This document shows positions 1-17,211 of a stretch of 64,000 bases of DNA, piece by piece. The notes under the pieces were generated by a model. The model made no database searches and was not told the origin of the DNA. It worked only from the letters and a program-made list of their open reading frames with translations. The number at the start of each line of letters is the position of its first letter. Within the stretch, counting starts at the first letter, position 1. Location of the stretch: assembly GCA_002269645.1 (NCBI GenBank), contig NIVC01000077.1, forward strand, positions 186,001 through 250,000, given 5' to 3'. The translations under genes and the position numbers were made by a program. Origin of the DNA: Macrostomum lignano. Lineage: Eukaryota.

Positions 1-4
1 AAAA

Positions 5-415
5 ATGACACACGTTACACATATGCAAAATCTGAACGAATTGCAGGTAGGAGACCCAGTTGAATACCGAGGTGAGGGTCTTTTTGATGTGGTTGGTACA
101 GCAGCGAATTTCGTTAAAGACAATATGGGTCTTATAGGCCAAGCAGGCTCTGCAGCAGGTTCTATAACAAACGCTGTAAAGGGCGGAATCGAAGCAGCGA
201 GGGCAGTAGAAGAACTAAAGAAATTGAGAGAATTTAACGACACCCTCTCACAAATAAAAGCAATAAAAGATTTGAAACTAGCGCAGGAAACAACTCAAGC
301 CGCACAACCAACAGAAACCCCCACGAAAAGCACACCAATAAGTAATAAAGATATTCAGGATTTTAATAAAATGTTAACCACAATTAAAGGCGGAAAAGGA
401 TTAAAGAAATTTTAA
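5..415 (+). CDS. Polinton hypothetical virion/core protein (136 aa)
   Basis: Full ORF with AAAAATG start context; G-x-G motifs (RGEG-LF, GGKG-LK) like putative protease sites in other virion ORFs. Confidence 0.7.
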   Translation: MTHVTHMQNLNELQVGDPVEYRGEGLFDVVGTAANFVKDNMGLIGQAGSAAGSITNAVKGGIEAARAVEELKKLREFNDTLSQIKAIKDLKLAQETTQAAQPTETPTKSTPISNKDIQDFNKMLTTIKGGKGLKKF

Positions 416-425
416 CAATATAAAA

Positions 426-1385
426 ATGGACTCAGTTAATGACGAAAAACGGCTATATTTTATAGGAGAAATTGTAGACAGTCTAGGTTTAGATGATAAT
501 AAACATAGCAACACAATGTTAAAAAGATTGGATCGTTTAGGTAAAAAACTTGACTACGATATCGATACATTTAAACTTGCTGCAAAATATGCACAAGAAG
601 GAAGACCAATATCCTTTAAGAATCGCGGTAGAAATTATAGGCTGACAGACTCCGATGTAAAATTTTTATTGGAGACTCACACTAAAAAGGACGGTGGGTT
701 GTTACCTATTTTACCAATTCTTTTAGGCCTCGGAGCAGCCGGAGCAGCCGGTTTAGCAGGAAAAAGAATTCATGATAACATAAAACAGTTAGGAGAATTA
801 AAAGCAAAAGAAGGGGGTATATTACCCCTCGCAACTTTGCTCCCAATAATTTTTGCAGGAATTGGAGCAGCTGGAGGAGTCGCTGGAGGAGCGGCTGGAA
901 TTGCAAAAGCAGTAAATGACAAAAAAGCCGCGGATGAAAAAGCCAAAAGAGAGGCCGAATTTCAAAGACAGCAAATAACACAGGACGCACAATTCAAACA
1001 AAAACTTATAGATACAATTAATAGTAGCTCAGCAACAGCAGAACAAAAAAGAAATGCAGAAGCTAAATTAGCAGCTGGAAAAGGTTTAATTTTAAAAGGA
1101 ACAACCCAAGGAAGTGGAGTTGTCGCAGATAAACTACAGGAATTTGGTCAAACTTTAGAAAAAACGGGTGAGAAAGCTAAAGGATTTTTTGACAATATTG
1201 GATCCAATTTTAGACCGGCTGTTCAGAAAATTTTTAATAAATTAGGAAAAGATTTTAACATCATTGAAAAACACGACGGAAGCGGATTATATCTCGAAAT
1301 GCGACCAAAAGCAGGTTCAGGAATTTTCTTAAATTCAAACGTTATGGGCAATGGATTACTGTTACCAAAAGCAGATCTCGAATAG
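426..1385 (+). CDS. Polinton virion protein with two adenovirus pX(mu)-like GG-(I/L)LP hydrophobic segments (319 aa)
   Basis: GGLLPILPILLGLGAAGAAG and GGILPLATLLPIIFAGIGAAGG resemble the adenovirus pX C-terminal GGILPLLIPLIAAAIGA motif; multiple GxG motifs in the C-terminal half. Confidence 0.75.
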   Translation: MDSVNDEKRLYFIGEIVDSLGLDDNKHSNTMLKRLDRLGKKLDYDIDTFKLAAKYAQEGRPISFKNRGRNYRLTDSDVKFLLETHTKKDGGLLPILPILLGLGAAGAAGLAGKRIHDNIKQLGELKAKEGGILPLATLLPIIFAGIGAAGGVAGGAAGIAKAVNDKKAADEKAKREAEFQRQQITQDAQFKQKLIDTINSSSATAEQKRNAEAKLAAGKGLILKGTTQGSGVVADKLQEFGQTLEKTGEKAKGFFDNIGSNFRPAVQKIFNKLGKDFNIIEKHDGSGLYLEMRPKAGSGIFLNSNVMGNGLLLPKADLE

Positions 1386-1469
1386 GCACCTGGGGGGTGG
1401 GTCAAGACACCAAAAACGCAAAATTAAAAAACCAATAATTCAAATATTATATAAATTTGATTCTATAAA

Positions 1470-4400
1470 ATGGAAGCAATTTTAGCTCAAATCGACAATC
1501 CTGAAATTAGAGCACAATTAATAGCTCAATTGGAATTAGAAAGAGCTAATATAGAAGCTAGAGTTAGGGCAGAAAATGAGATACGTTTAGAAAGACAATT
1601 AAATGATATTGATAACCCCCAACCACAAGGACAAAATGGAGCTAAAGTAATAGATATAGATATAGATATAAATACAAATTATAAAGAATATTTTAAACAA
1701 ATGAAAGATAAATTAAAGACCATATTAAACAATTATACTATAAGGCCAAATAACAAACGACAGCCAATTAAGTATAAAATAGAAGTTGAAACAGAATTTA
1801 AAAAACCAAATATTCTTAGTGCAAATTCAGAAATTGAAGTAATAAATAACTTTTCACAAGAATCATATAAAACACTACTATCAATGGGAAATTACAATAA
1901 TCAATTTAATCAAATAGAAGCTGAGTTTGATGAATGGATAGATAAGATGACAGATAACGGTTCTGGCTTTATATTTGTATCCTGTAATTCAGCAACAGTA
2001 AAGATTGTTCCTATTGAAATTCTTAAAGGACGATCACACATGAATCCCAGATTTAAATCACATATGATTATAAATCCAGACAATAGAGATAATAAATGTT
2101 TATTATGGTGTTTATTAATTCATAAATATCACAATCAAGTAGAATCACACACTAATAAAATATATAATTATAGACAATATGAGGATGAAATAATAATGAA
2201 AAACATATCATACCCAGTAGCAATAGATGATATATATAAGATTGAAAAAATGAATGGTTTAAATATTAATGTGTTTACAATTGAAGAACCAGAAGATCTA
2301 GAAGAAATTTCAACCGATCCAGATTGGTATAAGAAAAGGTGTTATCTTGTTAAGCCAGCAACTGATATAACAGCACCAGATCAAATCGACCTTTTGTACA
2401 TACAGCGTGAAAATGAAACACATTATATATACATAAAGGACATTAGTTCATTTTTACAAGAAAATAGAAATAGATATCCACTATGTAGAAATTGTTTCAC
2501 ATTTAAAAAGGATGAAACAGCTCTTAAAAATCATCAACGATTTTGTTTAGATCATAAATTTACAAATGTTGTAATGCCAGCTTATGAAGATGCAACCCTA
2601 AAGTTCCAACAACATTATATGGCAATTAAAAAACCAATAGTAATATATGCTGATTTTGAAGCAACAAATGTTCCCTTAAAAGAATCACAGACAGTATCTG
2701 ATGGTGAATGCACAAAAAAATTGGCACAACAGTTTCCGAATAGTTATTGTATATATGTACACTCCGTAGCTGATCATATATTTAAATCAAGGATGATTAC
2801 TTACCACGGTAAGGATGCAGCAAAACACATGGCAGAATCATTAGTAAATGTATTTGAATATATTCAAAATCAATATGATAAATTATCAAAAAATATTATT
2901 ATGACAGATAAGGATAGAGACAATTATAAAAATGCAACAAATTGTTATATGTGCAAAAGATATTTAAGTGGGAAAAATAAGATACGAGAACATTGTCATC
3001 TAACGGGAATTTATCGAGGGGCAGCATGTAGATCATGTAACGCAAAAGAAGGAAAAGGATGTAAGGAAATACCAGTATTTTTTCATAATGGTTCCGGCTA
3101 TGATTTTCATTTCTTAGTTCGAGAATTGCTTCATTTAGGTAGGGACGAATATGAAATAAATATATTACCTAAAACATCAGAAAATTACATATCAATAACA
3201 TATGGTAAGAAATACTCCCATCTAGTTTTTCTAGATTCCTTGAGATTCTTATCAACATCTTTAGCAAATGTTGTTTCATCATTAGTTCCAAAACCGTGGG
3301 ATTTAGAAATAGTAAAGAAAAACTTTCCAATACTATTGAATCGTTTCAAAAAGGAAAAACTATCCGAGGAAGAACTAATGCTATTAACTCGTAAGGGCTG
3401 CTACCCATATGAATATGTAACATCTGAAGACGTATTTTTTCATACCGAATTACCACCCATAGAAAAGTTTTATTCAACATTATCACAATCAAATATAAGT
3501 GAATCGGATTATGAACACGCTCAAAAAGTATGGAAATGTTTTAATTGTAAAACATTTAAAGATTATCATAATCTATATCTTAAAGCAGATGTTCTCCTAT
3601 TAGCTGATGCATTTGAAAACTTTAGGAATCATACATATGAGAACTTTAAAATTGATCCCGCTTATTGTTTCAGTGCACCCGGATTAACATGGGCATGTGG
3701 TTTGAAATACACAGATGTTGAGATTGATTTATTAACTGATCATGATATGTTGTTAATGATTGAGAGAGGAATTCGCGGTGGATTCTCGGGGGTATTAGGA
3801 GATAGATATACTAAAGTAAATAATAAATATCTACCAAATTATAATAAAAAAGAAAAATCATCATATGTATTATATCTAGATGCAAACAATTTATACGGTG
3901 GTTGTATGAAACAAAAATTACCAATAGCTGATTTCCAATGGGAAGACGACCCCGATTATTACAAAAATATTCCCGAAGGAAGGGGCTGTATCGTAGAAGT
4001 GGATTTGCAATATACTCGGGAAGCAAAAGCAAAAACATATAAATATCCTTTAGCTCCAGAGCATTGTTCAGTTAATGAAGATGATTTATCACAAACACAA
4101 AAAGATTATCTTAAAGCAGATAATGCAAAACACCTAGCAACAAAAAAATTAATATTAAATTTACATGATAAGAAAAACTATGTAGTGCATTATAAGCTTC
4201 TACAATTTTATGAAAAGCAGGGATTAAAAGTGTCTAAAGTACATCGAACAATATCGTTTATTGAGGAAGATTGGTTAGCTAAATATATTGACTTTAATTC
4301 AAATCAGAGACAGATGTCAAAAACAAATTTTGAGAAAGATTATTGGAAATTAATGAATAATGCTTTTTATGGAAAAACGGTTGAAAATATTAGAGATAGA

Positions 4401-5444
4401 ACCCAATTCCATTTAGAAAAGGATATTGATAAAGCAAAGAAATATTTCTCAAAACCTAACTTTAAAGATTTTATAAAATTTGATGATAACTTTATGGGAA
4501 TACATATGAGAAATAAAACAACAAAATTTCTTAAACCAATATTTATTGGAATGGTTGTTCTAGATTTTGCAAAGCTAGTAATGTATGAATACTATTATGA
4601 TGTTATAAATAAAACATGGCCAGATAACTATCCAATATATGCAGACACCGACAGTTTGGTATTTAAGGTTGAAACAGATGATCGGACGGAGTCCGCGACC
4701 CTGCGGGGCGATCGGGCAAAGCCCGCGAACCAAAGGTTCGATGTCTATAAAGATATGGAAAAAATTAAGGATACATTGGATACATCCGACTATCCGGATA
4801 ACCATCCCTTAAAATCGAATCAAAATAAGAAAGTTGTACTTAAAATGAAAGATGAATTAAATAGCAAAATCATATCCGAGTTTATAGCAATAAGATCAAA
4901 ATGCTATGCATTTAAAGTTTTAGGACAGGAGGGAGAGGTAAAAAAAATAAAAGGGGTATCAAGGGCGGCAGTTAAAAAGATAACATTTGATGATTATAAA
5001 AATGTACTTTTAGATTACCTTAATACAATTGAAAATTATCACACTCCACAATATCGATTAAATTCAGATAAGCATCGGATGTTTGTCATCGAGACAGATA
5101 AAAAAACATTAAGTCCATTTGATGATAAAAGATATTTAGATGATAAAATTAAAACATATCCATATGGTTTAAAAGATGAGATAAAAAATATGATAAAAGA
5201 TAAAAAACAAAAAGAAGATATAATAAGCAAATATAATGAATACAAAGAGGCAATAAATAATTATTATTACGATTGTGATTGTGAATCCGAATGTGAATGT
5301 GAATATAATACATTTCTAGAATATGAAAAAGATATAGATAATTATTATGCAACTTTTCCAAAAGAACTTAAAAAATTAAACAAGGAAAAAGTCTTGGATA
5401 ACTGGAAGAGATTAACAGAAAAACTAATAATGGTAAAAAACTAA
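1470..5444 (+). CDS. polB: Protein-primed family B DNA polymerase (pPolB) with internal EndoVII/HNH-like Zn domain
   Basis: Exo motifs YADFE and HNGSGYDFHF; polymerase motifs YLDANNLYG, KLMNNAFYGK, YADTDS; CYMC..EHCHLTG.YRGAACRSCN insert; C2H2 finger CRNC..HQRFC. Confidence 0.98.
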   Translation: MEAILAQIDNPEIRAQLIAQLELERANIEARVRAENEIRLERQLNDIDNPQPQGQNGAKVIDIDIDINTNYKEYFKQMKDKLKTILNNYTIRPNNKRQPIKYKIEVETEFKKPNILSANSEIEVINNFSQESYKTLLSMGNYNNQFNQIEAEFDEWIDKMTDNGSGFIFVSCNSATVKIVPIEILKGRSHMNPRFKSHMIINPDNRDNKCLLWCLLIHKYHNQVESHTNKIYNYRQYEDEIIMKNISYPVAIDDIYKIEKMNGLNINVFTIEEPEDLEEISTDPDWYKKRCYLVKPATDITAPDQIDLLYIQRENETHYIYIKDISSFLQENRNRYPLCRNCFTFKKDETALKNHQRFCLDHKFTNVVMPAYEDATLKFQQHYMAIKKPIVIYADFEATNVPLKESQTVSDGECTKKLAQQFPNSYCIYVHSVADHIFKSRMITYHGKDAAKHMAESLVNVFEYIQNQYDKLSKNIIMTDKDRDNYKNATNCYMCKRYLSGKNKIREHCHLTGIYRGAACRSCNAKEGKGCKEIPVFFHNGSGYDFHFLVRELLHLGRDEYEINILPKTSENYISITYGKKYSHLVFLDSLRFLSTSLANVVSSLVPKPWDLEIVKKNFPILLNRFKKEKLSEEELMLLTRKGCYPYEYVTSEDVFFHTELPPIEKFYSTLSQSNISESDYEHAQKVWKCFNCKTFKDYHNLYLKADVLLLADAFENFRNHTYENFKIDPAYCFSAPGLTWACGLKYTDVEIDLLTDHDMLLMIERGIRGGFSGVLGDRYTKVNNKYLPNYNKKEKSSYVLYLDANNLYGGCMKQKLPIADFQWEDDPDYYKNIPEGRGCIVEVDLQYTREAKAKTYKYPLAPEHCSVNEDDLSQTQKDYLKADNAKHLATKKLILNLHDKKNYVVHYKLLQFYEKQGLKVSKVHRTISFIEEDWLAKYIDFNSNQRQMSKTNFEKDYWKLMNNAFYGKTVENIRDRTQFHLEKDIDKAKKYFSKPNFKDFIKFDDNFMGIHMRNKTTKFLKPIFIGMVVLDFAKLVMYEYYYDVINKTWPDNYPIYADTDSLVFKVETDDRTESATLRGDRAKPANQRFDVYKDMEKIKDTLDTSDYPDNHPLKSNQNKKVVLKMKDELNSKIISEFIAIRSKCYAFKVLGQEGEVKKIKGVSRAAVKKITFDDYKNVLLDYLNTIENYHTPQYRLNSDKHRMFVIETDKKTLSPFDDKRYLDDKIKTYPYGLKDEIKNMIKDKKQKEDIISKYNEYKEAINNYYYDCDCESECECEYNTFLEYEKDIDNYYATFPKELKKLNKEKVLDNWKRLTEKLIMVKN
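4681..4740. repeat. Two tandem 30-nt double-hairpin modules inserted in frame in pPolB
   Basis: AT+CGGAC-GGA-GTCCG+CGACCC-TGC-GGGGCG+AT+CGGGC-AAA-GCCCG+CGAACC-AAA-GGTTCG, followed by AT; adds 20 aa just after YADTDS. Confidence 0.93.
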
Positions 5445-5798
5445 AGCATGTAATTCTTCGAGCATATCATTAACTGCAATTTCATATAATATTGAAGGCC
5501 AATTTTCCTCGCAGTCGTCAGGATCGGTCGAAGACCGCGACCCTTCGGGGCGGTAACTTAAACATTCTTTTATTTTTTTCCTAAGTACTTTTATTCGTCT
5601 AACCAATCTATCTATTTCAATTTCAATTACTGTTTCAGCATAAGCAAGCGCAGCTTTTATAAAACACATTCTTTTATCCATCTCATATCGGATGGGAAAC
5701 ATTTCGTCCCCCCACTCACTATAAGACATTGAATTTATTTTTTTATTAATATCTTTAATTTCACGCTTTTTAGTGATAAGGATTTTTATTGTCTCCAT
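5424..5798 (-). CDS. Polinton hypothetical protein (likely start METIKI at 5798; contains one 30-nt double-hairpin module at 5523-5552)
   Basis: ORF track 5424..5822; AAAATG context at 5798. Confidence 0.6.
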   Translation of the reverse strand: METIKILITKKREIKDINKKINSMSYSEWGDEMFPIRYEMDKRMCFIKAALAYAETVIEIEIDRLVRRIKVLRKKIKECLSYRPEGSRSSTDPDDCEENWPSILYEIAVNDMLEELHALVFYHY

Positions 5799-5814
5799 TT
5801 TCTTATAAAAAAAA

Positions 5815-6147
5815 TTAGTCATCTTCGCCAGCCTCCCAAACGGAAGCCAATTTTACAGTCCTGTCACTCTTTTTATTATTTGTTTGTTTTAGTTTAAATT
5901 GCAATCCACCCTCGGTGCTGTATTTTATAATGAACGCTTTAGGTTTATTAATAACTAAAACTGGAAAATTTTTAACATCATTCCCACTTAGACATAGTAT
6001 TGTTTGCCCATCTAATTGTAAAAATATCGATTGAAGTCCAATAAATTTAACCTGTCTCAAACATATAATATTATATTCTTTATTCTCCAACATATTGGGT
6101 GTGAGATAATTAATCACATTAGAATCGGTTTTGAACCAGCTCTCCAT
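5815..6147 (-). CDS. Polinton hypothetical protein (110 aa)
   Basis: ORF with TAAAAATG start, tightly packed between neighbouring genes. Confidence 0.65.
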   Translation of the reverse strand: MESWFKTDSNVINYLTPNMLENKEYNIICLRQVKFIGLQSIFLQLDGQTILCLSGNDVKNFPVLVINKPKAFIIKYSTEGGLQFKLKQTNNKKSDRTVKLASVWEAGEDD

Positions 6148-6173
6148 TTTTAATCTAAAAAAATAACAAAAAA

Positions 6174-6686
6174 ATGAAAGACATTTATGAATGTAATAAA
6201 TGTAACGTGACTATGCATAGAGCTCAAACAGTAAACGGAGATATATATCATATGTGTTATTCATGTTCTAAAATATATCAATTTGAAAAAACAAAAAAGA
6301 TTGAAAACTCATATTACTATTTTAAAAACACAATTTTAAGAAATCTTACAAGAGACATATCTGATCCAATTTTAATTCCCGGAAATAATGTTTATTTATA
6401 TAACAACTTTTTCCATTTAAATAAAGGAAAGGGATTAAGTTCGAAAGACGCTGAAAGGATTTTAATTTTAGTTGGATATTATTTTAATTTTCTTATTCGA
6501 GAGAATACAAAGTTCATAAGGATAGGTAACATACCTAACGAAATGTTACTGAAAAAGTCGTTGGAATTTTTATGTATTGATAAAAAATTTAAACCTAGGA
6601 TCACAAGAGAATTACCACTTTGGGAAGAATATATAACATATGCATTAGAAAAATTGTACTTTGTACACATGACTTGTCATGATTAA
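6174..6686 (+). CDS. Polinton hypothetical protein with N-terminal C4 zinc ribbon (170 aa)
   Basis: CNKC-x17-CYSC; AAAAAATG start. Confidence 0.65.
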   Translation: MKDIYECNKCNVTMHRAQTVNGDIYHMCYSCSKIYQFEKTKKIENSYYYFKNTILRNLTRDISDPILIPGNNVYLYNNFFHLNKGKGLSSKDAERILILVGYYFNFLIRENTKFIRIGNIPNEMLLKKSLEFLCIDKKFKPRITRELPLWEEYITYALEKLYFVHMTCHD

Positions 6687-7369
6687 ACAACATTAAGTTC
6701 TACCGCACTACCTGATCGGGGGCTTTGTACCCCAGTACCAATAGTTTCGGGTTCGTAAATACCTAATGTTTCTATCGGCGGAGCTTTGGGTTTGTCGAGT
6801 CTCAACTCTTTTAATTCTATATCGGTAAAAGTTTCAACATCTAAAATTCTATTTCGATCTTTTAAATATTTTTCATATAATTCAACCGCGGTTGATAACT
6901 CGTGAATTGTTATCTCTCCGTCATCCAATATTTTTTGCACATATAAATATAACTGATTTTTATATTGCTTGGCAACATCTCTTAATGATTTATATTTTTC
7001 CTTTCGTTTTTTAAGATATAATTTAATTGCTAAAAGTATTGATAAGTTTCTGATTAATTCAAAACCTGATATTGAGCCAATTGAAATACCTAAAAATAAT
7101 TGAGATAAATTAAGAGTTGGAATAGATTGTAAAATACCTAAAATGATTACACATAACATCGATAAGCTTCCAAAACCAATATTGAAAAAATCCATATTTC
7201 TGATATGGTTTGAAATCCTTCTTACTTTTTTACTATATAAATCATAATCATAGTTAATACGATCAACATTACTTAACATGTGGCCTTTACGTTGGTCGTG
7301 CATAGCACGCGAACCTTCGGTTCGGTCAAAATGGTCACGTTCCCTTTTATCTGCTTCAGACACCGACAT
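6683..7369 (-). CDS. Polinton two-TM membrane protein (228 aa) with one in-frame double-hairpin module (7295-7324)
   Basis: Two adjacent hydrophobic helices followed by a K-rich helix and ILDDGEITIHEL, a layout recalled from conserved Maverick membrane ORFs. Confidence 0.7.
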   Translation of the reverse strand: MSVSEADKRERDHFDRTEGSRAMHDQRKGHMLSNVDRINYDYDLYSKKVRRISNHIRNMDFFNIGFGSLSMLCVIILGILQSIPTLNLSQLFLGISIGSISGFELIRNLSILLAIKLYLKKRKEKYKSLRDVAKQYKNQLYLYVQKILDDGEITIHELSTAVELYEKYLKDRNRILDVETFTDIELKELRLDKPKAPPIETLGIYEPETIGTGVQSPRSGSAVELNVV

Positions 7370-7685
7370 TCTCGTCTATTTTTAATAGCACCAAAATGAA
7401 TTCCCCGCGCTCTTTGGGGATTTGTCCTGAGCTCAATAGGTATTGTATTGGACTTATTCTTTCTTTTTTCTCCCATTTAAATCCAATTTTCCAAAACTCT
7501 TGAAGTATAATATGATTTTTTAATAATTTAATTAATTCTTGAAGTTTCTTATTATCCTGAACATTCACATTGCTAAATAAATATTTGGTATGAGATTTAA
7601 AAGTTTTTATAATCGGTTCTTGTTTAGGAATAGGAATAATAACATTATTATTCTGCCGCATCGATGGAGTTCTACTAAAAGCCAT
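7356..7685 (-). CDS. Polinton hypothetical protein (109 aa)
   Basis: ORF with TATAAAATG start. Confidence 0.6.
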   Translation of the reverse strand: MAFSRTPSMRQNNNVIIPIPKQEPIIKTFKSHTKYLFSNVNVQDNKKLQELIKLLKNHIILQEFWKIGFKWEKKERISPIQYLLSSGQIPKERGEFILVLLKIDENVGV

Positions 7686-7756
7686 TTTATATAGAAATAT
7701 TTAAGTTATCGAACCAAAGGTTCGCGACTTAGGCTTTAGCCTTAGGCGATCGCCCC

Positions 7757-9627
7757 TTAGGGTCGCAGCATTAGCTGATCTGTGTAGGTGGTTTTTCTAA
7801 ATAAGCGGTAGAAGGAAAAACATAGCCGTAGAAAAACGGCAGCGCCACGAATAAAATGTGCAGCATCCGATCCTCCGGTTCGAGCACCAAAACCCATAAG
7901 AGTTCCAGATTTATCTAAAGTTCCCCAATTCCCACTATCATAAGCAAAAACATTTTGCCCAATTAGAGTATAAGAATCGGCTGAAACATTGTATGAATTT
8001 AATCGATACCAAACCCTTTGATTAAGAATATTTATTTCAAACAGATGCCAATCACCATTATCAATATTTGCATAGTCTACCGTTTGATCCGCGTCAGTAT
8101 TAACATCCGCGCGGCTTGATCCATCTGATTTTTTAGAACTCCAAAGTAGGCCAAATTTATCATGCCACTCACTCGCAAAAACTATCAATCCAGCGTCTGT
8201 TGCTAAACCTGCCCCGCTTTCGGTTGTTGGTCGTTCGTGACAATATGCATAAAACCAAACGGCATCTGCACCACCTCCTGTAGCATTAGCAACTCTGAAA
8301 AAGAAAGACGCTGATATATTTTGAAAATGTGTGAAATTAAATTGTAATGCCCCACTGACTCCAACAGTTTCACGAGTAATTCTAGCACCATTTTGATAAT
8401 CGATATAAGAAGCGTCGCCAATTAAAGAACCAACTGGATATATATCTCCGGCGGTTGTTGGATTTTGATATCCAGTCCAATTGCAAATTACTGTCTCGAA
8501 TAATGCAGCATCAATCGCGGGAATATTATCCAATTTATTTTTATCACCTGCAGACATTCTACCGTTTGATGTTGGGGTTGCTACCTGATCTACGTACGCT
8601 CGCGGGGTTGCAGAAAGTATTTGATTCGGCCAATTAAGATCTTGAATTTCAACTCGGTGTTCAAATAATTGAATTAGACGAACCTCGATAGGTTGTGTAG
8701 CGGTGCCACCAGTTGGGAATAAAACACTATAATATTTCCAAAAATTAACCGTTAAATTAGTTAACGCAAATGAAGTTGCTTGAATTGGCGATCCCGACGT
8801 TCGTAATACCGTCCATGCATCGGTAGCAACATTTTTTGCGCGAACCGACCATCCCGATGGGATATCAATAGTTGCGCTGCCTGTAATTCTTAATTCATTT
8901 ATTCTTCGATTATAACCTAAAAATTCAAATTGAATTTCAATATTGGTTGTGGTTCCGGTATTTGGTGACCATTGTGTCGCAAGGCTTCCATCTCCAACTC
9001 GAAAAGCATCGTTGGTATTTTCAGATGCTGTAAGAACAACATCAGGATTTGAAGTATTTGATGTAAGCGGTGTGGCAAAAATATCGGCGTCTGTTACATT
9101 AGCTCGAGCGTTGACTTGCCCTAAATTGACCGAGTCTGTGTCCTCTGTTCCAAATAATAAATTTGTTAATTTAAAATTATTCATATTAATATTGCCAGTA
9201 CGACTACCAACCTGATTATCGACATAGTTCTTATCAACTACCGAGTTATTCGTTGTAATTGCAACATTTATAATTCGATTGTTGTTTCGGTTCCGGTTGC
9301 GGTGGTTTGAACATAACGCGAATCAGAATCATTTCGAGAATAAGAATCAGTTATATCTCTTTTTAAATTTAACCCAGTGTCAACCTCTGTTTTTGTATAT
9401 GAATCACTAATATCTCTTTTAAGATTTAATGAAGTGTCGATTTCAGTTTTGGTATAGGAATCTGCAACGTTTCTTTTTAAATTTAGTTTAGTATCAATTT
9501 CAGTTTTTTTATAACCTTCATCCTCATTAATATATCGGTTATCTCCGAATGTAACACTTATTCCACCAGATGTACCACCACCAGTACTTGTTGTTCCGTT
9601 CCATGAGGGTGTTCCAGAAAATATCAT
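7757..9627 (-). CDS. Fibre/receptor-binding protein (repeat shaft + discoidin-like + legume-lectin head), split by a frameshift near 9270-9310
   Basis: ORF 9268..9627 has YTKTEID-type repeats. The reading NNRIINV..VDKNYVDNQ..NMNNFKLTNL continues in the frame of ORF 7757..9184. Lectin motifs GGGADAVWF and MGFGARTGG..AHFI. Confidence 0.75.
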
Positions 9628-9637
9628 TTTTTACTGC

Positions 9638-10165
9638 CTATTTTATAGAGTCTAAAATCGCCCCGTAGGGTCGCGGACTTCGTCCGATCGTTCCGATGGA
9701 ACGCGTGCTTTGCACGATCGAACCGAAGGTTCGCATACTTTGTATGATATCTTTAAAGTCTTCGGGTCTTTCCTTAGAGTTATTAATTTTATATAAAAAA
9801 TACAACGCCGCTTGCCCGCAATAACTTTTATCAAAGGTTTGAAATTGTTCGTGATGATCTCCACATAAACGATTTTTAGTATGATTAAATTTGTCTTTTA
9901 TTTCCTGTAACGGAGGAAGCGCGTATGAATCAAAAAAATAAACAAGTTTGGGTTTGGAATAAACTGCCGACCAATGAACACCGTTTTCTTTTGTTGTTTC
10001 TATATTGACAATGTAAGATCCATATTGTGGTAAGTCTTTGATCTCATCTCGCATAACACATCTAAATGGTTTTATTTTTAGTTGCCGCGCCCAATTTGTT
10101 AATTCAATATTGCTTGTTGTGTCAGTTCCATATCTTTGTTTGAACAACTGCCAATTCAAAGTCAT
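9638..10165 (-). CDS. Adenain-like cysteine maturation protease
   Basis: Catalytic motifs GVHW, YFFDSY, QTFDKSYCG; the C-terminal 30 aa before LDSIK derive from three double-hairpin modules. Confidence 0.95.
   Translation of the reverse strand: MTLNWQLFKQRYGTDTTSNIELTNWARQLKIKPFRCVMRDEIKDLPQYGSYIVNIETTKENGVHWSAVYSKPKLVYFFDSYALPPLQEIKDKFNHTKNRLCGDHHEQFQTFDKSYCGQAALYFLYKINNSKERPEDFKDIIQSMRTFGSIVQSTRSIGTIGRSPRPYGAILDSIK
9657..9748. repeat. Three tandem 30-nt double-hairpin modules in the protease 3' end
   Basis: AT CGCCCC-GTA-GGGTCG CGGAC-TTC-GTCCG AT CGTTCC-GAT-GGAACG CGTGC-TTT-GCACG AT CGAACC-GAA-GGTTCG CATAC-TTT-GTATG AT. Confidence 0.93.
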
Positions 10166-10166
10166 T

Positions 10167-10340
10167 TTATGTTCCTGAAAAACTCTTGGTTTTGATTAGT
10201 TTCGTAGGTTTGGATTTTAACAGTTCCTTTCGGATTTTTTCTGCTTGAAGTTGTTTCAATTTTGTTAGTTCGATTTCATAATTATCCTTTGCATTTTGAA
10301 CTTTATCTGATTGTTTTTTTAAACTATTATTGTTACCCAT
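10167..10340 (-). CDS. Small basic protein with N-myristoylation consensus (57 aa; below ORF-track cutoff)
   Basis: MGNNNSLKKQ...KSFSGT*; TAAAAATG start; fills the gap between penton and protease exactly. Confidence 0.7.
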   Translation of the reverse strand: MGNNNSLKKQSDKVQNAKDNYEIELTKLKQLQAEKIRKELLKSKPTKLIKTKSFSGT

Positions 10341-10350
10341 TTTTACAATG

Positions 10351-11136
10351 TTAAACCTGTTTTATCCGTAAAATTATTGTTATTGACTGTCCACCAAAAC
10401 TTATTAATCTATCGCTTTCATCTACAATCCTAATATAAATTGATTGAACACTATATTGATTTAAAGGATAATATATTGGGGTTTGGGGTGCAACAATCAT
10501 TTTCTCTCCAATTGGAACAGCAAGAAATGGGATGGAATAAATAATTCCACGTTGAACCAAAACTCCGTTATCATCTGTTATATAACCGCCGTTTGATATG
10601 TCGGTTGTTATATTAATTGTATTAACTCCACCCTCAATATTTCCAACGGTATCGCCAGTGCTTGATGTGGTAACGATTCGGGAATTAAATCCGAGTATGG
10701 TTCTGAGTGAATTTGCAATTGTGAAATCAACCTGATATCCAGATTCTAGTGATAGCGTGAATCTGCCAGATGGTAAATCAACCCCTATAACAATCGCGCC
10801 TGCTACCCAATCGCCATTAGCTGTTAATTCTCCTTCTATATAAGCATTCAAATCGGTATAGGAATATGCTCCTGGGTTAACGCTAAATGTTGTCCAATTG
10901 GCTCCGGAATCTTTAGAATATCTAAATTGATTATTTGTTGCATTAATTAATTGAGGCATGTTAAAAACTGAAAATAGTATCAAACCTATTTGATAACTTA
11001 GGCTTTGATCGAGTTGTAACGGATCGCGCAATCGAATCAGTTGCTCACTTCTTGTCATTATAAACTGTAAGGTTGTACTAAATTTTGAATTAGTTCGATC
11101 TACCAATTGTTTTATAGTATCCAAATTTGTAGCCAT
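10351..11136 (-). CDS. Minor capsid protein (penton, single jelly-roll)
   Basis: N(Q)F.Y, PG.YS..DLN, P..PIYYPL and IRIVDE..RLI.F.G...TI.LRI motifs typical of Polinton pentons; position next to the ATPase. Confidence 0.88.
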   Translation of the reverse strand: MATNLDTIKQLVDRTNSKFSTTLQFIMTRSEQLIRLRDPLQLDQSLSYQIGLILFSVFNMPQLINATNNQFRYSKDSGANWTTFSVNPGAYSYTDLNAYIEGELTANGDWVAGAIVIGVDLPSGRFTLSLESGYQVDFTIANSLRTILGFNSRIVTTSSTGDTVGNIEGGVNTINITTDISNGGYITDDNGVLVQRGIIYSIPFLAVPIGEKMIVAPQTPIYYPLNQYSVQSIYIRIVDESDRLISFGGQSITIILRIKQV

Positions 11137-11154
11137 TTTTTATAGTGGATAAAA

Positions 11155-11919
11155 CTAAGTCTCTTCTTCCTCATTATCTTCTTTTATCAGATTTGTTAAG
11201 ATTCGATGTTTCCTTTCTAACCTGGGGTTGATATATATGTGTTTGTATTGGCTATCATCCCAAATTTTTTTACACATACTTTTAAATGGTTTGGTATCCA
11301 ACCCAGGATTAAATCTAGCGTGTATATTTTGTAAATCATATTTATCTAAATCAAACATTACACAACAGCTAGCATTCTTTTTTATAATTGATTCTAATTC
11401 TCTAAAAGATTGAGTAAGATAAAATGCTCCAATTCCATCTCCTCTACCACTAACAAAAATTTCCTTTTGCAATTCTTGATCGCCGTCATTAATACAATCA
11501 TCAAAAATAATTAGTGTTTTATCATGTTTTGGAATTTGATCATAGGATAATCGGGTTGATACTCTAACAGTTGGGGATCTCTCGGTGGTGTTTTCTGATA
11601 TTTGTGCCGTTGTTTTACATAAATCCTCAATGTCATCGAGTGTAAATCTTGGTTCATCATCGTCCTCATATTGCTCATATGCTCTTAACATTCTAAACAT
11701 AATATCTTTTTTTAATTTGTTTTTTAATCCATGTTTAAGAAATTCATAATATTTTATTTTAGGTTTGTTAGTATATATTAATAAATTATTATAGTCTAAC
11801 ATTCCATCTGTTGTTAATAAATCGTAAACAAAGTGTGTTTTTCCTTTACCTGATCCTCCGATTACTAAACAAAGAAAAGGATCATTTGGAAATATCTTAT
11901 TGTGTTTTGCTTTTACCAT
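11155..11919 (-). CDS. FtsK/A32-like genome packaging ATPase
   Basis: Walker A GGSGKGKT, Walker B LIIFDD, YLTQS motif. Confidence 0.95.
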   Translation of the reverse strand: MVKAKHNKIFPNDPFLCLVIGGSGKGKTHFVYDLLTTDGMLDYNNLLIYTNKPKIKYYEFLKHGLKNKLKKDIMFRMLRAYEQYEDDDEPRFTLDDIEDLCKTTAQISENTTERSPTVRVSTRLSYDQIPKHDKTLIIFDDCINDGDQELQKEIFVSGRGDGIGAFYLTQSFRELESIIKKNASCCVMFDLDKYDLQNIHARFNPGLDTKPFKSMCKKIWDDSQYKHIYINPRLERKHRILTNLIKEDNEEEET

Positions 11920-11967
11920 TTTTAAGGAAATAATTTATATAGGCGCGACGTGCTTTGCACTGCGACA

Positions 11968-13440
11968 CTAAAGTGGCGCGTCCTGAACTATGGTTCCGTC
12001 AGCCCGTGCAATTGCCATGTATTCCTCGAGAAACAAAACGTGGGCGTCAACCGCCTGATTTCCGGTTTTATTAATCTCTAACATATAATTAAGTCCAACA
12101 TTGGATACATTTTCTTTCTGTGCCGTTAGGTCAAAAACAGACACTGGATGAATGTTTAGAAACTCGGTGGGTGTGTACTGAGGAACCGCATACACTTCAT
12201 TTTTGACATAATCCTGATAATATTTTATAAAATCATTAACATCATTATTACCTATATTAAGATTAAGGGGTTCTTTAACCGGATAATACTGATCATCAAC
12301 CTGTAGGCGAATATTCTGAAGATTAAATGCGTTTATTGCTGAAGCTGCGGTATCGGTTGCCGTGGCTGCTTGGTCTGCTACTGCATCAGATTGAATCCAA
12401 TACAAATCACCGTTTGCACGTTTGCTAGTTCTATTTGTTATTTTAAACCAAACAAATATATATCTCACCCGACGTTTTGATGTTAATATTTGCCATTGGA
12501 ATGAATCCTGATTGTTATTAATGGTGCGCATAAAATGTCGACGATTCAAATAAAATATTTCTTGATCAACCATTAACTGATTATCAATATGTTTTAATAG
12601 CGGAGCCGTTACCTCAATGGTTGGTACGACTAATTGAATTGAAACTATTCTAAGTGCTATATCGGTTGAGGTTGAAGTTCCAAAAAGTATCCTACCCTGA
12701 TATCCACCAGATATTTGCAACTGTACCCCAAATTTTAATCCTTTCCATACCCGATTTGGTGAGAAGAACCCAAACAGTGGAAAGATTGAAAAGTCTTGCT
12801 CGTAAGCTGTTGCGTTGGTTAAAACCGCGACTGGGAATTTATTCTGACGATCTAGGAATCCCGTGTTTATGTTTTTAGGGTTGGTTAGAGTTGTTACAAC
12901 TGGAACTATGTTTGTATTAAGGTAATTAATAAGAGCTGCGGTATCTGCACCGGCTGCTGGTGCTACGTTAGGAAAATTTATTGCTCCACCATCTCCCTTA
13001 TCGGGCATCCATCCAACATTATCACCAACCTGTTTTGATAAATAAGTATAATTTAAATGTTTAAGAACTCCATTAATCTCTGCGGGGTTTGTTGATGTTT
13101 CAACCTCAGCTCCGTTAATTCTTAGTTGAGCTTGGGAAAAACATTTATAAAACCAATCGTTCTCGATAACAATACCAGCGCGGTCTGCTATATCACCAGC
13201 TCCAAGAGCCGTTCCGTCATTTCGTGTATATAACCATCTAACACGGAAAAACGCATTTTTCATATCCAGTATTGTATTAGTTGCACCAACATCAAAAGTT
13301 ACCGTTCCAGTAGTAAAATTGTTTGAATTATCGCTTGTTGGTAGGGTATAATTTAAATCTCTTGCCCTGACCTCATTAATATACTGGCGGTGCTTTTTGA
13401 AATAATACTTATCACTCCATCTGGTTTTTGTTTCAGCCAT
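11968..13440 (-). CDS. Major capsid protein (double jelly-roll)
   Basis: 490-aa beta-rich protein with FSQAQLRING.EVE, NL.NIRLQVD..YYP and YP(V)SVFDLTAQKE-type motifs; adjacent to ATPase and penton. Confidence 0.88.
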   Translation of the reverse strand: MAETKTRWSDKYYFKKHRQYINEVRARDLNYTLPTSDNSNNFTTGTVTFDVGATNTILDMKNAFFRVRWLYTRNDGTALGAGDIADRAGIVIENDWFYKCFSQAQLRINGAEVETSTNPAEINGVLKHLNYTYLSKQVGDNVGWMPDKGDGGAINFPNVAPAAGADTAALINYLNTNIVPVVTTLTNPKNINTGFLDRQNKFPVAVLTNATAYEQDFSIFPLFGFFSPNRVWKGLKFGVQLQISGGYQGRILFGTSTSTDIALRIVSIQLVVPTIEVTAPLLKHIDNQLMVDQEIFYLNRRHFMRTINNNQDSFQWQILTSKRRVRYIFVWFKITNRTSKRANGDLYWIQSDAVADQAATATDTAASAINAFNLQNIRLQVDDQYYPVKEPLNLNIGNNDVNDFIKYYQDYVKNEVYAVPQYTPTEFLNIHPVSVFDLTAQKENVSNVGLNYMLEINKTGNQAVDAHVLFLEEYMAIARADGTIVQDAPL

Positions 13441-13474
13441 TTTTTATAGTTAAAAAAGTTTTTTATGTTAAAAA

Positions 13475-14146
13475 ATGAGTCAATTTATGGATGTTGATGG
13501 AGAGTTAGAGATTTATAAAGATAAGCAAAGATATTCTGATTTTGTTAGAAATTTACAAAAAAGAAAGTTAGGAATACAATTAGCTGGCGAAAGATTTGCT
13601 GCTCCTTTTGTTAATCCGATTACGGAGAAAGTTAGTGAACTAGAAAAAACAGATAAAGACCTTCTAGAAAAAATTGCTAAGAATACCGAGCCAAAAGAGG
13701 ATGAAATTTTGGATGAGCCGCCTGCTTATGATGTTGATCAAGCATTATTGAGAGTTGCAGAAATTAGGGCTGCAGAAAGGGGTGGAGTTGAACAATATCC
13801 GAGAGCTGCACCACAAAGTATTGCTGTGCGAGATTTAGATAATAATAATTATCGAATTGGTGGAGTTGTTAAAAATCAGAATGAGCTATATAGAGAATTG
13901 GGTGGAGCATATAATATTATTATGAACCCGAGGGTAAAATTTAATCCTGATTTATATACTAGGGATGAATTAGTAAGTGCTAAAATTTTTTATGATGAGT
14001 TAGGAGAAAGAGCTGCTAAAAATACCAGTTTGTATAAAAGGATTGTTGATTCTATAAATAACAAACCGGTTGTTGGAGAAGGATTTAAAACTCCACGAAA
14101 ACTTGTTTTAGCTGCTGCGAAAGCTGCTGGACATACAGGAGTTTAA
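13475..14146 (+). CDS. Polinton PZ-like core protein (223 aa)
   Basis: C-terminal GEG-F...LVLAAAKAAGHTG resembling the PZ AGN/AGH motif. Confidence 0.55.
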   Translation: MSQFMDVDGELEIYKDKQRYSDFVRNLQKRKLGIQLAGERFAAPFVNPITEKVSELEKTDKDLLEKIAKNTEPKEDEILDEPPAYDVDQALLRVAEIRAAERGGVEQYPRAAPQSIAVRDLDNNNYRIGGVVKNQNELYRELGGAYNIIMNPRVKFNPDLYTRDELVSAKIFYDELGERAAKNTSLYKRIVDSINNKPVVGEGFKTPRKLVLAAAKAAGHTGV

Positions 14147-14173
14147 TTAATTGTTAAATTTATTTTTTATAAA

Positions 14174-14689
14174 ATGGAAAATACGATAAAAAATTGTCTT
14201 TGTAAACCTATTTATGATAAGGCTGGTTCTGACAGAATACTAAATAAGATATTTCAAAATGAATTAATAATTGCAAACCGTATTAAAACAATTCAAATGA
14301 GACTTGGATATCTTTATGAATTATTAGCTATTGAACATTTTGGTTTTGAAAAAATAAACAAAATTGATTTAATTCATACCGAAAGAAAAATTGCGTTAGA
14401 ATTAAAATCTTCTGATAATACAGATAATTTATCAAGTAGATTTAGAAATATTCAAAAGTTATTAGAATTTAAATATGTTAATCCCGAATTTGATTTATAT
14501 TATATTTGCATTAATAATACTACTAAAAACCCCGTACAAAAGGTATTTGATAATGGAGTTACCTTTTTAACTGGGGAATTTGCTTTAAATTTTTTATATG
14601 GTGATCAATATTTGGAAATTATTAAAATGATAGAAACGTGTTTTTCAAAGATTAAAAATGAGCAACCGAACGAAGTTCGCGAACCGTAG
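14174..14689 (+). CDS. Free-standing PD-(D/E)xK restriction-like endonuclease (171 aa)
   Basis: GYLYE helix, IDL, ALELKSSDNTDN pattern as in type II REase/PD-(D/E)xK folds; no methyltransferase in the visible element. Confidence 0.7.
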   Translation: MENTIKNCLCKPIYDKAGSDRILNKIFQNELIIANRIKTIQMRLGYLYELLAIEHFGFEKINKIDLIHTERKIALELKSSDNTDNLSSRFRNIQKLLEFKYVNPEFDLYYICINNTTKNPVQKVFDNGVTFLTGEFALNFLYGDQYLEIIKMIETCFSKIKNEQPNEVREP

Positions 14690-16264
14690 GTTCGACCAAT
14701 TAGTATTTGAAGGAGGATTTTTAGACTTACAAAAAGGATTAACAAGCTTACCGAGTATTTTTACTACTGGAAGGTATACAAATGAATTACACCTGCCGTC
14801 GTATAATTTCACAGGTTACCCCGTGGCCTGAGTGAGGAAGTCAATGTCCTTGCTAGTCACTATTTGTGGCGACATCTTCAAATTGCGTGAAACCCGTCAT
14901 ACAGCTTCAAGTACCACTTCAATTGAGAAATCTTTTGAAGGAACAGAGGTAACTCCTCTTCCCAACGGTAACAAGCTTGAAGACATGGTGGCAATGCGCA
15001 GCCAAGCTCCTAAGTCGGTCGATATGGAGAAGGTTCAGAGAGCAGACGGAGATGGGCGGTAATTTAACCGCTTAAGGTGTGCTCCAGCCTCTTTCGAAAG
15101 ATTGAGGGTAAACTACCCGGCACTAAGTTAGATTTGAGATTAAATCCTGATGACACTCCAAAAGCTGATTCAATTCCCATTAACGGTATTGATTGGTTAG
15201 CATATTATCATGACTTAGCATACAGAGATGCTGATAAGAACTCACCCGAGGAAGCATTAAGATTAAAACATGAAGCCGATAGAAAAATGATTCAAGGATT
15301 AGATAACTTACAAGGATTATCGGTAAGCCAAAGATTAACTCGGTGGATGGTTAAAAAGATTCTGCAATCTAAAGTTAAATTTGGTTTGGGAATTAATTAC
15401 AATCAACATGGAAATAATTGTGTTGAGTGTTTATTATTAAGTGGCAGTGGGTTAAGTTCTGATGAGGCAAAGATTCTTCATAAAGAATATCGAAAACCTA
15501 AATTTTATAGAAAAATCATGAACTTCAAAAAGAATGAAATTTGGTATGCTGATTTAATGTCGATGCCGAGCGACAGAGGATATAAATATATTTTAACCAT
15601 ATTAGATGGTTTTACTAGATACGCGTGGGCTGTTCCTTTAAAATCCAAAAAAGGAGAGGAGGTTGCTGCTGCTTTTAGAAGTCTTGGAGAAAAAAGCGAA
15701 CGGTTGTGTGTTGATGAGGGAAAAGAATTTTACAATCCTCATATGTATAAATTATATCATTTTGAAAAAGGAAAAGAAAGGATGAAGGACGCGAATGGGG
15801 AGTATATTAATAAAATTTATTCTATTTATGGAGAAAGTAAAAACGCATTAATAGAAAGATTTAATCGAACTTTGGGGAAGAAATTGTGGTTTCAGTTTAG
15901 TCTTAATGGAAACCAAAAGTGGGTAAAAATATTACCAGACGTCGTGAAAGATTATAATAATTCATATCATTCAGCAATAAAGATGACTCCTCAACAAGCT
16001 TATAACAATCCTGAAAACGTTAAAGTTACTTTTGGAAAATTTGAAAAAAATAAAAAGAAATCTTTTAAGGTTGGTGATTCTGTTTATATCTATAAATGGA
16101 AAAATAAGTTTGAAAAGGGAAGAAAAGGATATTGGAAAATTAGTGAGAAATTTACTATCAGTAAAGTTTTAAATACAAATCCTACAACCTATATAATTGC
16201 TGATAAGGATGGTGAAGAAATATTAGGTTCGTTTTATGAGAATCAACTAATATCAGCGAACTAA
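14658..16264 (+). CDS. PLA2-integrase fusion (exon 1 14658-14816, exon 2 15116-16264; 435 aa spliced)
   Basis: Joining gives ELHLPSYNFTG|PGTKL (PLA2 Ca loop), then HDLAY and HEAD (PLA2 catalytic), then rve DDE motifs WYADL, LCVDEGKEF, IERFNRTL. TAAAAATG start at 14658. Confidence 0.9.
14817..15115 (+). ncRNA. Group I self-splicing intron (IC1-like fold), 299 nt, no internal ORF
   Basis: P1 with U.G (exon CAGGU/GCCUG 14826-30); P3 CAUCUUC/GGAGAUG; P AAAUUGCGUGAAA; Q AAUGCGCAGCC; P5abc with A-rich bulge and GAAA L5b; 11-nt receptor CCUAAG/UAUGG; P7 GAGCA/UGCUC; P8; P9 with GAAA loop; P9.0 AG/CU. Confidence 0.95.
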
Positions 16265-16274
16265 GTTCGAACAA

Positions 16275-16442
16275 TTACTTGAGACAACATGGTAGTAAAT
16301 TTTTTATAACAAACAAAAACAATATTATTACTATTATTGTTACTAATATAATTATTGAAATTTGTTCAACAGATATCAAACTTAAATTTTCATTAAGTTC
16401 ATTAATCGGCACATTTCCGATGTAGGAGTAATTTACCTTCAT
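16275..16442 (-). CDS. Small single-pass membrane protein (55 aa; below ORF-track cutoff)
   Basis: MKVNYSY...ISIIILVTIIVIILFLFVIKNLLPCCLK*; TAAAAAATG start. Confidence 0.55.
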   Translation of the reverse strand: MKVNYSYIGNVPINELNENLSLISVEQISIIILVTIIVIILFLFVIKNLLPCCLK

Positions 16443-16501
16443 TTTTTATATATATTTTTCATAATAAATGTTGTTTCTGTTATAGAATAATAGTTCATTT
16501 T

Positions 16502-16816
16502 TTACATAAAAATTTCAATTTCATTCTCAGAATCACTAGTTTCATATGAGCTATTTGTTGAGTTGGAATCGTCTGAACGAACCTCCCAATCATCCGAATT
16601 TAAATAATCTCCAAGTTGAAATATTAACTCACCCTCTTGTTCTAAATCATACATCTCATCCAACTCTAATGGATAAAGTTTTGGGTCGTGCTTGTCGTCA
16701 TACTTTAAATAAACTTCATCAATTATTCCATTCAAAATATGTTGTTTTATTATCTCTGCATTTTTAGCAACAGTCTCAAAAGTATCACTAACAGAAAAGG
16801 TGTAAACTCGGGTCAT
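16502..16816 (-). CDS. Acidic hypothetical protein (104 aa)
   Basis: ORF with TAAAAATG start adjacent to the terminal repeat. Confidence 0.6.
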   Translation of the reverse strand: MTRVYTFSVSDTFETVAKNAEIIKQHILNGIIDEVYLKYDDKHDPKLYPLELDEMYDLEQEGELIFQLGDYLNSDDWEVRSDDSNSTNSSYETSDSENEIEIFM

Positions 16817-16859
16817 TTTTAGTAACAGAAAAAGACCCTTCGCGCCTGCGGCGCGTGCG

Positions 16860-17211
16860 AGGGGTTATAGAGATTTGGATGTGTTAGAAGTGTTGGGGAG
16901 TGTTGGAAGAATTGGGATGTGTAGTAGTAGGTAAAAAGACGAGTACAGATCAGCCCTTTTTAAATGGCCGTTTATAAGGTTCCAGAGGGGGGACACGAGG
17001 GGGCTAATTCAAAGAGTTGGGGATGGGTTATATTGATTTGTGGTATTAAGGGGTGTTGTGGGTGATTAGGTGTGTTATGGGGTGTTATGGGTGTGTTATG
17101 GGTGTTTAGATGTGTTTTTTTATTTCCCCCCCCCCGTGTCCCCCCTCTAGACCCTTAAAACGGCTGTTAAAAAAGCGTGCTGGGTCTGTACTCGTCTTTT
17201 TACCTACTACT
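16860..17211. repeat. Polinton right terminal region (TIR; inner boundary uncertain) with internal inverted copy of the terminus
   Basis: Non-coding GT-rich short repeats; AGTAGTAGGTAAAAAGACGAGTACAGA at 16923 is the exact reverse complement of 17185-17211. Confidence 0.85.

Follow-up and report, generated by a model that had tools for sequence, protein, structure and literature searches.

In Macrostomum lignano Polintons, a group I intron of the PLA2-integrase gene ends in A in most copies

The group I intron that splits the PLA2-integrase gene of a Polinton in Macrostomum lignano ends in A and not in the omega-G typical of these ribozymes. This omega-A is a trait of the intron family, neither an error nor private to the copy in our window (64,000 nucleotides of contig NIVC01000077.1), since of the 113 copies that could be typed 84 have A at this position and 29 have G. 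The reading that fits the data best, to which we give a probability of roughly 55%, is that the omega-A intron would be a slow ribozyme that still works and thereby keeps integrase production low. Textbooks treat omega-G as invariant in group I catalysis, and the natural exception that we could verify is fixed within a mitochondrial intron of 18–19 kb. The natural A and G forms found here are otherwise identical, so that the cost and the tolerance of omega-A are directly testable in a compact intron.

Host element

The window contains nearly all of a complete Polinton/Maverick element of about 19.1 kb, with these features:

1..17211, no strand: Polinton, starting 1874 bases before the window, recognised by terminal inverted repeats, target-site duplication and gene set
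1470..5444, plus strand: protein-primed DNA polymerase B with EndoVII-like insert (atlas neighbours with PF03175, score 0.95–0.96; Endonuclease_7)
11155..11919, minus strand: packaging ATPase (Pox_A32, E 4e-7)
11968..13440, minus strand: likely major capsid protein (atlas neighbours 0.97–0.98, mostly viral, some with capsid families)
14174..14689, plus strand: free-standing nuclease-like ORF that overlaps the integrase start (RE_Eco47II, E 2e-4, under the cut-off)
16833..17211, no strand: right terminal inverted repeat, from repeat comparison

The terminal inverted repeats of 380 bp are 98.4% alike and are accompanied by a perfect 6-bp target-site duplication at 17212–17217; between them lie protein-primed PolB, the rve integrase and the packaging ATPase. 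The rve match of the integrase (31 bits) is slightly below the cut-off of 32.6, with E 3e-7 for Pfam rve. For the polymerase a PDB sequence search gave no match, and the capsid assignment, with a recognition score under the threshold, is a lead only. Neither a minor capsid protein nor a cysteine protease was matched in this element with Pfam or PHROG. The adintovirus Polintons are similar in having pPolB, rve integrase, ATPase, a likely capsid, a PLA2-like domain, terminal inverted repeats and a 6-bp duplication; their PLA2 is fused to pX, whereas here it is fused to the integrase, and the adintovirus paper does not mention a self-splicing intron (PMC8502044).

The slot upstream of the integrase was compared in 58 loci and holds a restriction-like nuclease in 13 and an HNH/EndoVII-like nuclease in 42 of them (for instance L156:921-1487; PHROG endonuclease VII, E 3e-6). 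The slot gene is a possible free-standing homing nuclease; in the 58 loci its type tracked neither intron presence nor omega state, and the slot is filled in intronless and intron-bearing copies alike. Wnt genes gave strong matches in the host genome, and contigs C506, C952 and C393 carry Wnt genes together with intron A; thus, the elements are integrated in the animal nuclear genome.

Three further observations concern the window itself. The terminal repeat contains an internal inverted repeat at 16921–17211 (about 85 nt per side, 83–86% alike), so that each end of the element could fold back. An LTR-retrotransposon-type pol ORF of 1367 codons with RT, RNase H and integrase lies at 22407–26510 on the minus strand, and about 8 kb at 42000–50000 show an extreme GC skew (about -0.5) and are probably a tandem repeat array.

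Intron boundaries and host gene

The intron and its exons are arranged as follows:

14658..14816, plus strand: 5' exon, 53 codons from ATG 14658, aligning with the N-terminus of intronless homologues
14817..15115, plus strand: group I intron A, 299 nt, without a nested endonuclease gene (RF00028; intronless sister genes)
15115, plus strand: omega base, A
15116..16264, plus strand: 3' exon, 382 codons, with the remaining parvovirus-type PLA2 domain and the rve integrase (Pfam)

Rfam model RF00028 matched 14807–15106 with 62.9 bits (E 1.5e-15, cut-off 50), a match that was missed by the faster whole-window Rfam scan. Direct reading of the bases gave A15086-G15087, C15113-U15114 and A15115, followed by CCC GGC ACT. 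In three close intronless sister genes of the same genome (L155–L157) the Gly codon runs directly into Pro-Gly-Thr; a search with an intronless homologue revealed a more distant intronless group as well. Comparison with these intronless genes determines both splice sites: the intron spans 14817–15115, with A15115 as its last base. The bases flanking the junction are different on either side and leave no room for it to slide. The terminal A reported in the initial annotation is therefore correct.

Intron A separates the Gly codon from the Pro codon within FxG-PGT, presumably the calcium-loop motif of parvovirus-type PLA2; the homologous proteins in which the motif is visible mostly have FxG or YxG immediately before PGT. 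Removal of the intron restores the host gene at a site for which intronless alleles exist, both L155–L157 and the homologous proteins. The PLA2 domain is recognised with E 0.04 on the 3' exon of the window alone versus 7e-8 on the intronless homologue P0002. Near the intron end, the frame would otherwise be kept only by a G at 15100 or 15106 (both within P9) or by the one at 15127, which loses four codons; an alternative 3' splice site at a nearby G is ruled out by the intronless alleles and the frame. Spliceosomal removal could also be discarded, since the ends of the true junction are not GT-AG.

Two variations were seen among the copies. Four codons upstream of the intron, 38 of 40 intact A-ending copies and 8 of 13 G-ending copies encode Met (for instance L016:1540-1557); Tyr occupies this position in the window and the majority of homologues. 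An intron form of 333 nt, 30 nt above the common form of 303 nt, is present in 23 copies (L034, L174, L185 and others).

The same insertion site can be occupied by a second group I intron:

L175:2480-2810, minus strand: group I intron B (RF00028, E 6e-6), found also in L176–L178 and L248–L262

Its core, which we take to be IE-like, differs from that of intron A, but the two introns seem to have P2/P2.1 and P5abc sequence in common, suggesting that intron B is of chimeric origin. In all 19 copies examined, exon 2 contains two additional bases behind its Pro-Gly codons. With these, the most natural 3' site of intron B would shift the frame, although later or earlier G bases keep it.

Ribozyme fold

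Intron A has a group I fold with a P1–P9 core and a P3/P7 pseudoknot. The helix check over 78 distinct copies found the pairings kept, in agreement with the P1 (U14816.G14826), P3 to P9 and P9.0 helices proposed before, and revealed compensatory changes in P2, P3 and P9, the one in P9 being C-G to A-U. The extensions P2, P2.1 and P5abc are present, and we assume the intron to be IC1-like. No maturase-like and no endonuclease ORF was detected within it. The elements next to the splice sites and the guanosine pocket are:

14812..14830, plus strand: P1 helix with internal guide sequence (helix check), of which 14821–14825 can form P10 with the 3' exon as well
15038–15044 with 15080–15085, plus strand: P7, including the G-binding pair G15040-C15084
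15086..15114, plus strand: P9.0 (15086-87 with 15113-14) around the P9 GAAA hairpin at 15088–15107 (helix check)

The 5' exon ends in the U of the U.G pair that marks the 5' splice site, U14816.G14826. All six P7 pairs are Watson-Crick in the window copy, and G15040 stands opposite C15084, the canonical pair that had been claimed; 56 distinct A-ending copies contain not a single variant in P7, this pair included. P10, P9.0 and the frame together place the 3' site after A15115, as had been argued, with a P10 that is modest (C15116-G14825, a C/U mismatch and three G-C pairs; -3.3 kcal/mol with duplexfold).

Two ways of compensating for omega-A were considered. A stronger P10 was rejected, since the P10 of the common A haplotype (-3.3 kcal/mol) is less stable than that of its common G counterpart (-7.5 kcal/mol), and an altered G pocket was not found either. 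The terminal omega-G expected of a group I intron is lacking in the window copy and in 84 of 113 copies overall; since 29 sister copies of the same intron have it, the family is group I and the A allele is a deviation.

Omega polymorphism across the family

A genome search with the exact pattern found 75 A-ending and 14 G-ending copies and none with C or T. After fetching further loci the census comprised 116 loci, of which 113 were typed; L227 and L232 are chance 15-mer matches, and L246, which could not be parsed, ends in A. The intron tree was calculated without L035 and L173, in which the 5' part of the intron is missing, and L263 has no intron match. The polymorphism of omega over more than 100 copies is an addition to the initial annotation, which had offered a mistake in sequencing or an inactivating mutation of this one copy as one explanation and the inspection of sister copies and reads for G at 15115 as a check. 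The closest sister, L002, is 98% identical to the window and indeed has G, and many 1-nt deletions are found in these genes in the assembly; but with A as the majority state, with contigs from two other studies reading A across the boundary between intron and exon 2, and with C or T never seen, an error or private mutation has practically no chance of being the explanation.

A-ending and G-ending copies are mixed throughout the trees, and A occurs on the full spectrum of haplotypes: omega changed state 11 times on the intron tree (bootstrap range 10–14; shuffled mean 18.7) and 10 times on the exon 2 tree. One G copy has the same intron as seven A copies except for omega, and there is another pair of this kind. 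Linkage fades over about 30 nt. Omega is linked to adjacent positions only, no more strongly than the background at that distance; the family is thus a fast-recombining mosaic in which the number of A origins cannot be counted. The association of omega with positions +3 and +6 of the exon is not taken as epistasis, as the r2 values of 0.53 and 0.34 equal the background linkage at those distances (0.57 and 0.42). The most divergent introns (L231, L235 and L243) end in G, and distant homologous proteins that start with Met-Pro-Gly-Thr suggest G-ending introns at the same site elsewhere. On both counts, G is likely to be the older, ancestral state of omega.

Conservation of A-ending copies

Among 83 A-ending copies, intron diversity is 0.019 in the 86-nt core versus 0.055 in the periphery, and it drops to 0.003 in a strict 62-nt core (a set picked after inspecting the helix data), where the variants are confined to single copies, apart from a wobble change present in two copies. 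All 84 A copies have an intact P9.0, compared with 17 of 29 G copies; the 12 losses in G copies go back to three different changes, so that the contrast is one of three events versus none in copies that are not independent. An open 3' exon is present about equally often in both classes, in 51 of the 84 A copies and in 16 of the 29 G copies (P=0.66). In 21 of the 33 broken A copies the first break is a 1-nt deletion, possibly an assembly error.

Among 40 intact A copies pN/pS amounts to 0.18 in exon 1, 0.09 in the PLA2 part and 0.10 in the integrase; judged by these ratios, the exons of A-ending copies are under purifying selection. The first three codons after omega show synonymous variation only in 81 of 84 A copies. 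The right flanks of the 18 A-ending elements checked are all different, showing that all 18 are separate insertions, and their best matches are mostly 95–99.9% alike, which suggests that the insertions are recent. Since linkage decays over such short distances, the conservation of core and exons may have been imposed while the sequences resided in G-ending or intronless backgrounds.

Public runs

Contigs of six public runs, whose status as RNA is a guess, list no spliced exon junction. X1, X5, X6 and X13 were compared with the window and X1, X2, X6 and X7 with the commonest A haplotype; such contigs drop rare forms and may represent DNA or antisense. The G-linked haplotype is nearly absent from them, which could reflect a strain difference, silence or fast splicing.

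How an intron ending in A might be spliced

In the group I mechanism, free guanosine bound in P7 cuts the 5' site and then gives way to omega, and P9.0 and P10 contribute to the choice of the 3' site, as summarised in parts of two published accounts (PMC3679873, PMC6155759). For the omega-A intron, the first step would proceed normally with free guanosine. In the second step, the terminal A would be a poor fit in the unchanged pocket and ligation would be slow or partial; the always-intact P9.0 would hold the 3' site together with P10 and would bear the greater share. Much precursor would be left unspliced, as measured for the coral intron ND5-717, and the outcome would be less full-length PLA2-integrase mRNA and a lower supply of integrase, while recombination among copies would reshuffle A and G onto different backgrounds. 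The lower output might be either selected, as a throttle, or merely tolerated.

The coral mitochondrial precedent for omega-A that the initial annotation mentioned is real. ND5-717 of hexacoral mitochondria ends in A as intron A does, and according to the sections of PMC6545197 that we could draw on, its exons are ligated exactly in vivo with more than 70% of the precursor unspliced. It is an obligatory, back-spliced and gigantic mitochondrial intron (18–19 kb) in which A is fixed, whereas intron A is nuclear and optional, measures 299 nt, resides in a mobile element and is A/G-polymorphic among more than 100 copies.

A slow but working ribozyme is favoured by the A majority, the conserved core and P7, the intact P9.0, the open and selected exons and the separate insertions of A-ending elements, and by ND5-717 itself. 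Several observations stand against it, among them the lack of a spliced junction in the six-run contigs, the weaker P10 of the common A haplotype, the short-range linkage and the few events behind the P9.0 contrast. The G pocket is without a compensating change. A cryptic G lies five bases downstream at 15120; inspection shows three perfect pairs with the guide for it, and splicing there would put the frame out. The odd 3' junction of intron B in 19 of 19 copies hints that correct joining in cis may be dispensable.

It is also possible, though clearly less probable than slow splicing, that omega-A blocks exon ligation altogether. A-ending elements would then lack PLA2-integrase and depend for their mobility on G-ending or intronless copies acting in trans, and A would have spread by drift, recombination or DNA-level homing. 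Laboratory substitutions of omega-G reduce the second step strongly, and the spliced form is absent from the six-run contigs. Helpers are available in the 29 G-ending copies and the three close intronless genes, the integrase plausibly acts in trans, and the rapid recombination is able to explain the intact exons. However, a null allele at 74% across the tree should accumulate shared core-breaking changes, and the strict core contains none beyond the scattered variants described above; A copies are decayed no more than G copies, and ND5-717 is a natural omega-A intron that splices. The throttle on integrase/PLA2 output that the initial annotation listed among its options stands as the best-fitting reading of the sequence data, and the inactive allele that it listed beside it possibly survives in a family-wide form, complemented in trans.

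An unlikely alternative is that integrase is made without correct splicing, either from the in-frame AUG at 15287 (325 codons, the whole integrase) or after cryptic splicing, in which case omega would have little weight. The downstream ORF exists, G15120 offers a cryptic site, and 15 of the 19 intron B copies have an open exon 2 despite the frame problem at the most natural 3' site. Against this speak the purifying selection on exon 1 and on the PLA2 codons upstream of AUG 15287, the several AUGs that precede it and the conserved ribozyme core.

We consider it similarly improbable that a helper restores efficient splicing, by A-to-I editing of omega or through a protein of the host or the element. 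Inosine is read like G, ADAR is plausible in an animal host, and the G pocket is unchanged. Yet three of the four runs compared contain no A>G difference at omega, with all differences placed elsewhere, and in the fourth one site is unlisted, in contigs that lose rare variants. Group I introns that depend on host factors are known (excerpts of PMC3679873), but for the protein-assisted intron suggested earlier we found no support: intron A has no nested gene and no maturase-like ORF, and the adjacent nuclease genes do not follow the omega state.

Related introns

The P6–P7 core pattern of intron A occurs in at least 120 IMG/VR stretches, many of them from giant-virus bins. The best of 80 fetched viral introns is about 72% identical to intron A over 180 nt, and one of the 80 shares its AGC/GCU variant of P7; by its P9.0 pairing this viral intron appears to end in G. 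The polr2a and polr2b introns of Bodo saltans virus are similar to intron A in that a viral protein gene is split at a conserved motif without an endonuclease inside, as far as the accessible text of PMC5871332 describes them; unlike these, intron A is integrated in an animal genome. A further-reaching interpretation, which we regard as possible but less likely than not, would be that a Polinton has imported more than 130 working group I ribozymes from a giant-virus intron pool into an animal nuclear genome, and that the A/G switch at omega is an evolved integrase dial with the slow A favoured for limiting harm to the host. If splicing does take place, group I ribozymes act on animal nuclear mRNA, and the intron might be an RNA-level brake on a large transposon.

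Nuclear group I introns are described as restricted to the rDNA of fungi and protists in reviews, at least in the portions at hand (including PMC3679873); intron A, by contrast, lies in a protein gene on animal contigs. The nuclear rDNA introns of groups IC1 and IE resemble it in being nuclear, in their core and in their P5abc extension (parts of PMC3679873 and PMC9223047). Searches of the open-access literature retrieved no paper describing an omega that varies between A and G, and none on group I introns in nuclear Polintons of animals. The introns of protist Polinton-like viruses are likewise of RF00028 type and reside in endogenous polinton-type elements; they are about 300–380 nt long, have been reported only for a few protists and interrupt a short gene that precedes the one for the capsid, and the available passages of PMC12220804 contain no mention of omega-A, splicing or animals for them.

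Related integrase loci were also searched for introns. None of nine loci scanned with Rfam (of 109 metagenome and viral loci) had one, in a batch scan that is insensitive, since it missed the known introns of L158 and L175; a phage collection gave a single short match. In the ENA/Logan proteins P0004, P0037, P0008 and P0129 the match ends at the insertion site, at the predicted N-terminus. P0004 and P0037 start with a near-copy of the translated 3' end of intron A, while their cluster mate P0123 is intronless, which indicates related introns in Polintons of other samples. On the viral side, a contig of 49 kb (L045) carries two group I introns, at 13–304 and 2750–3090, one of them with the rare P7 variant of intron A.
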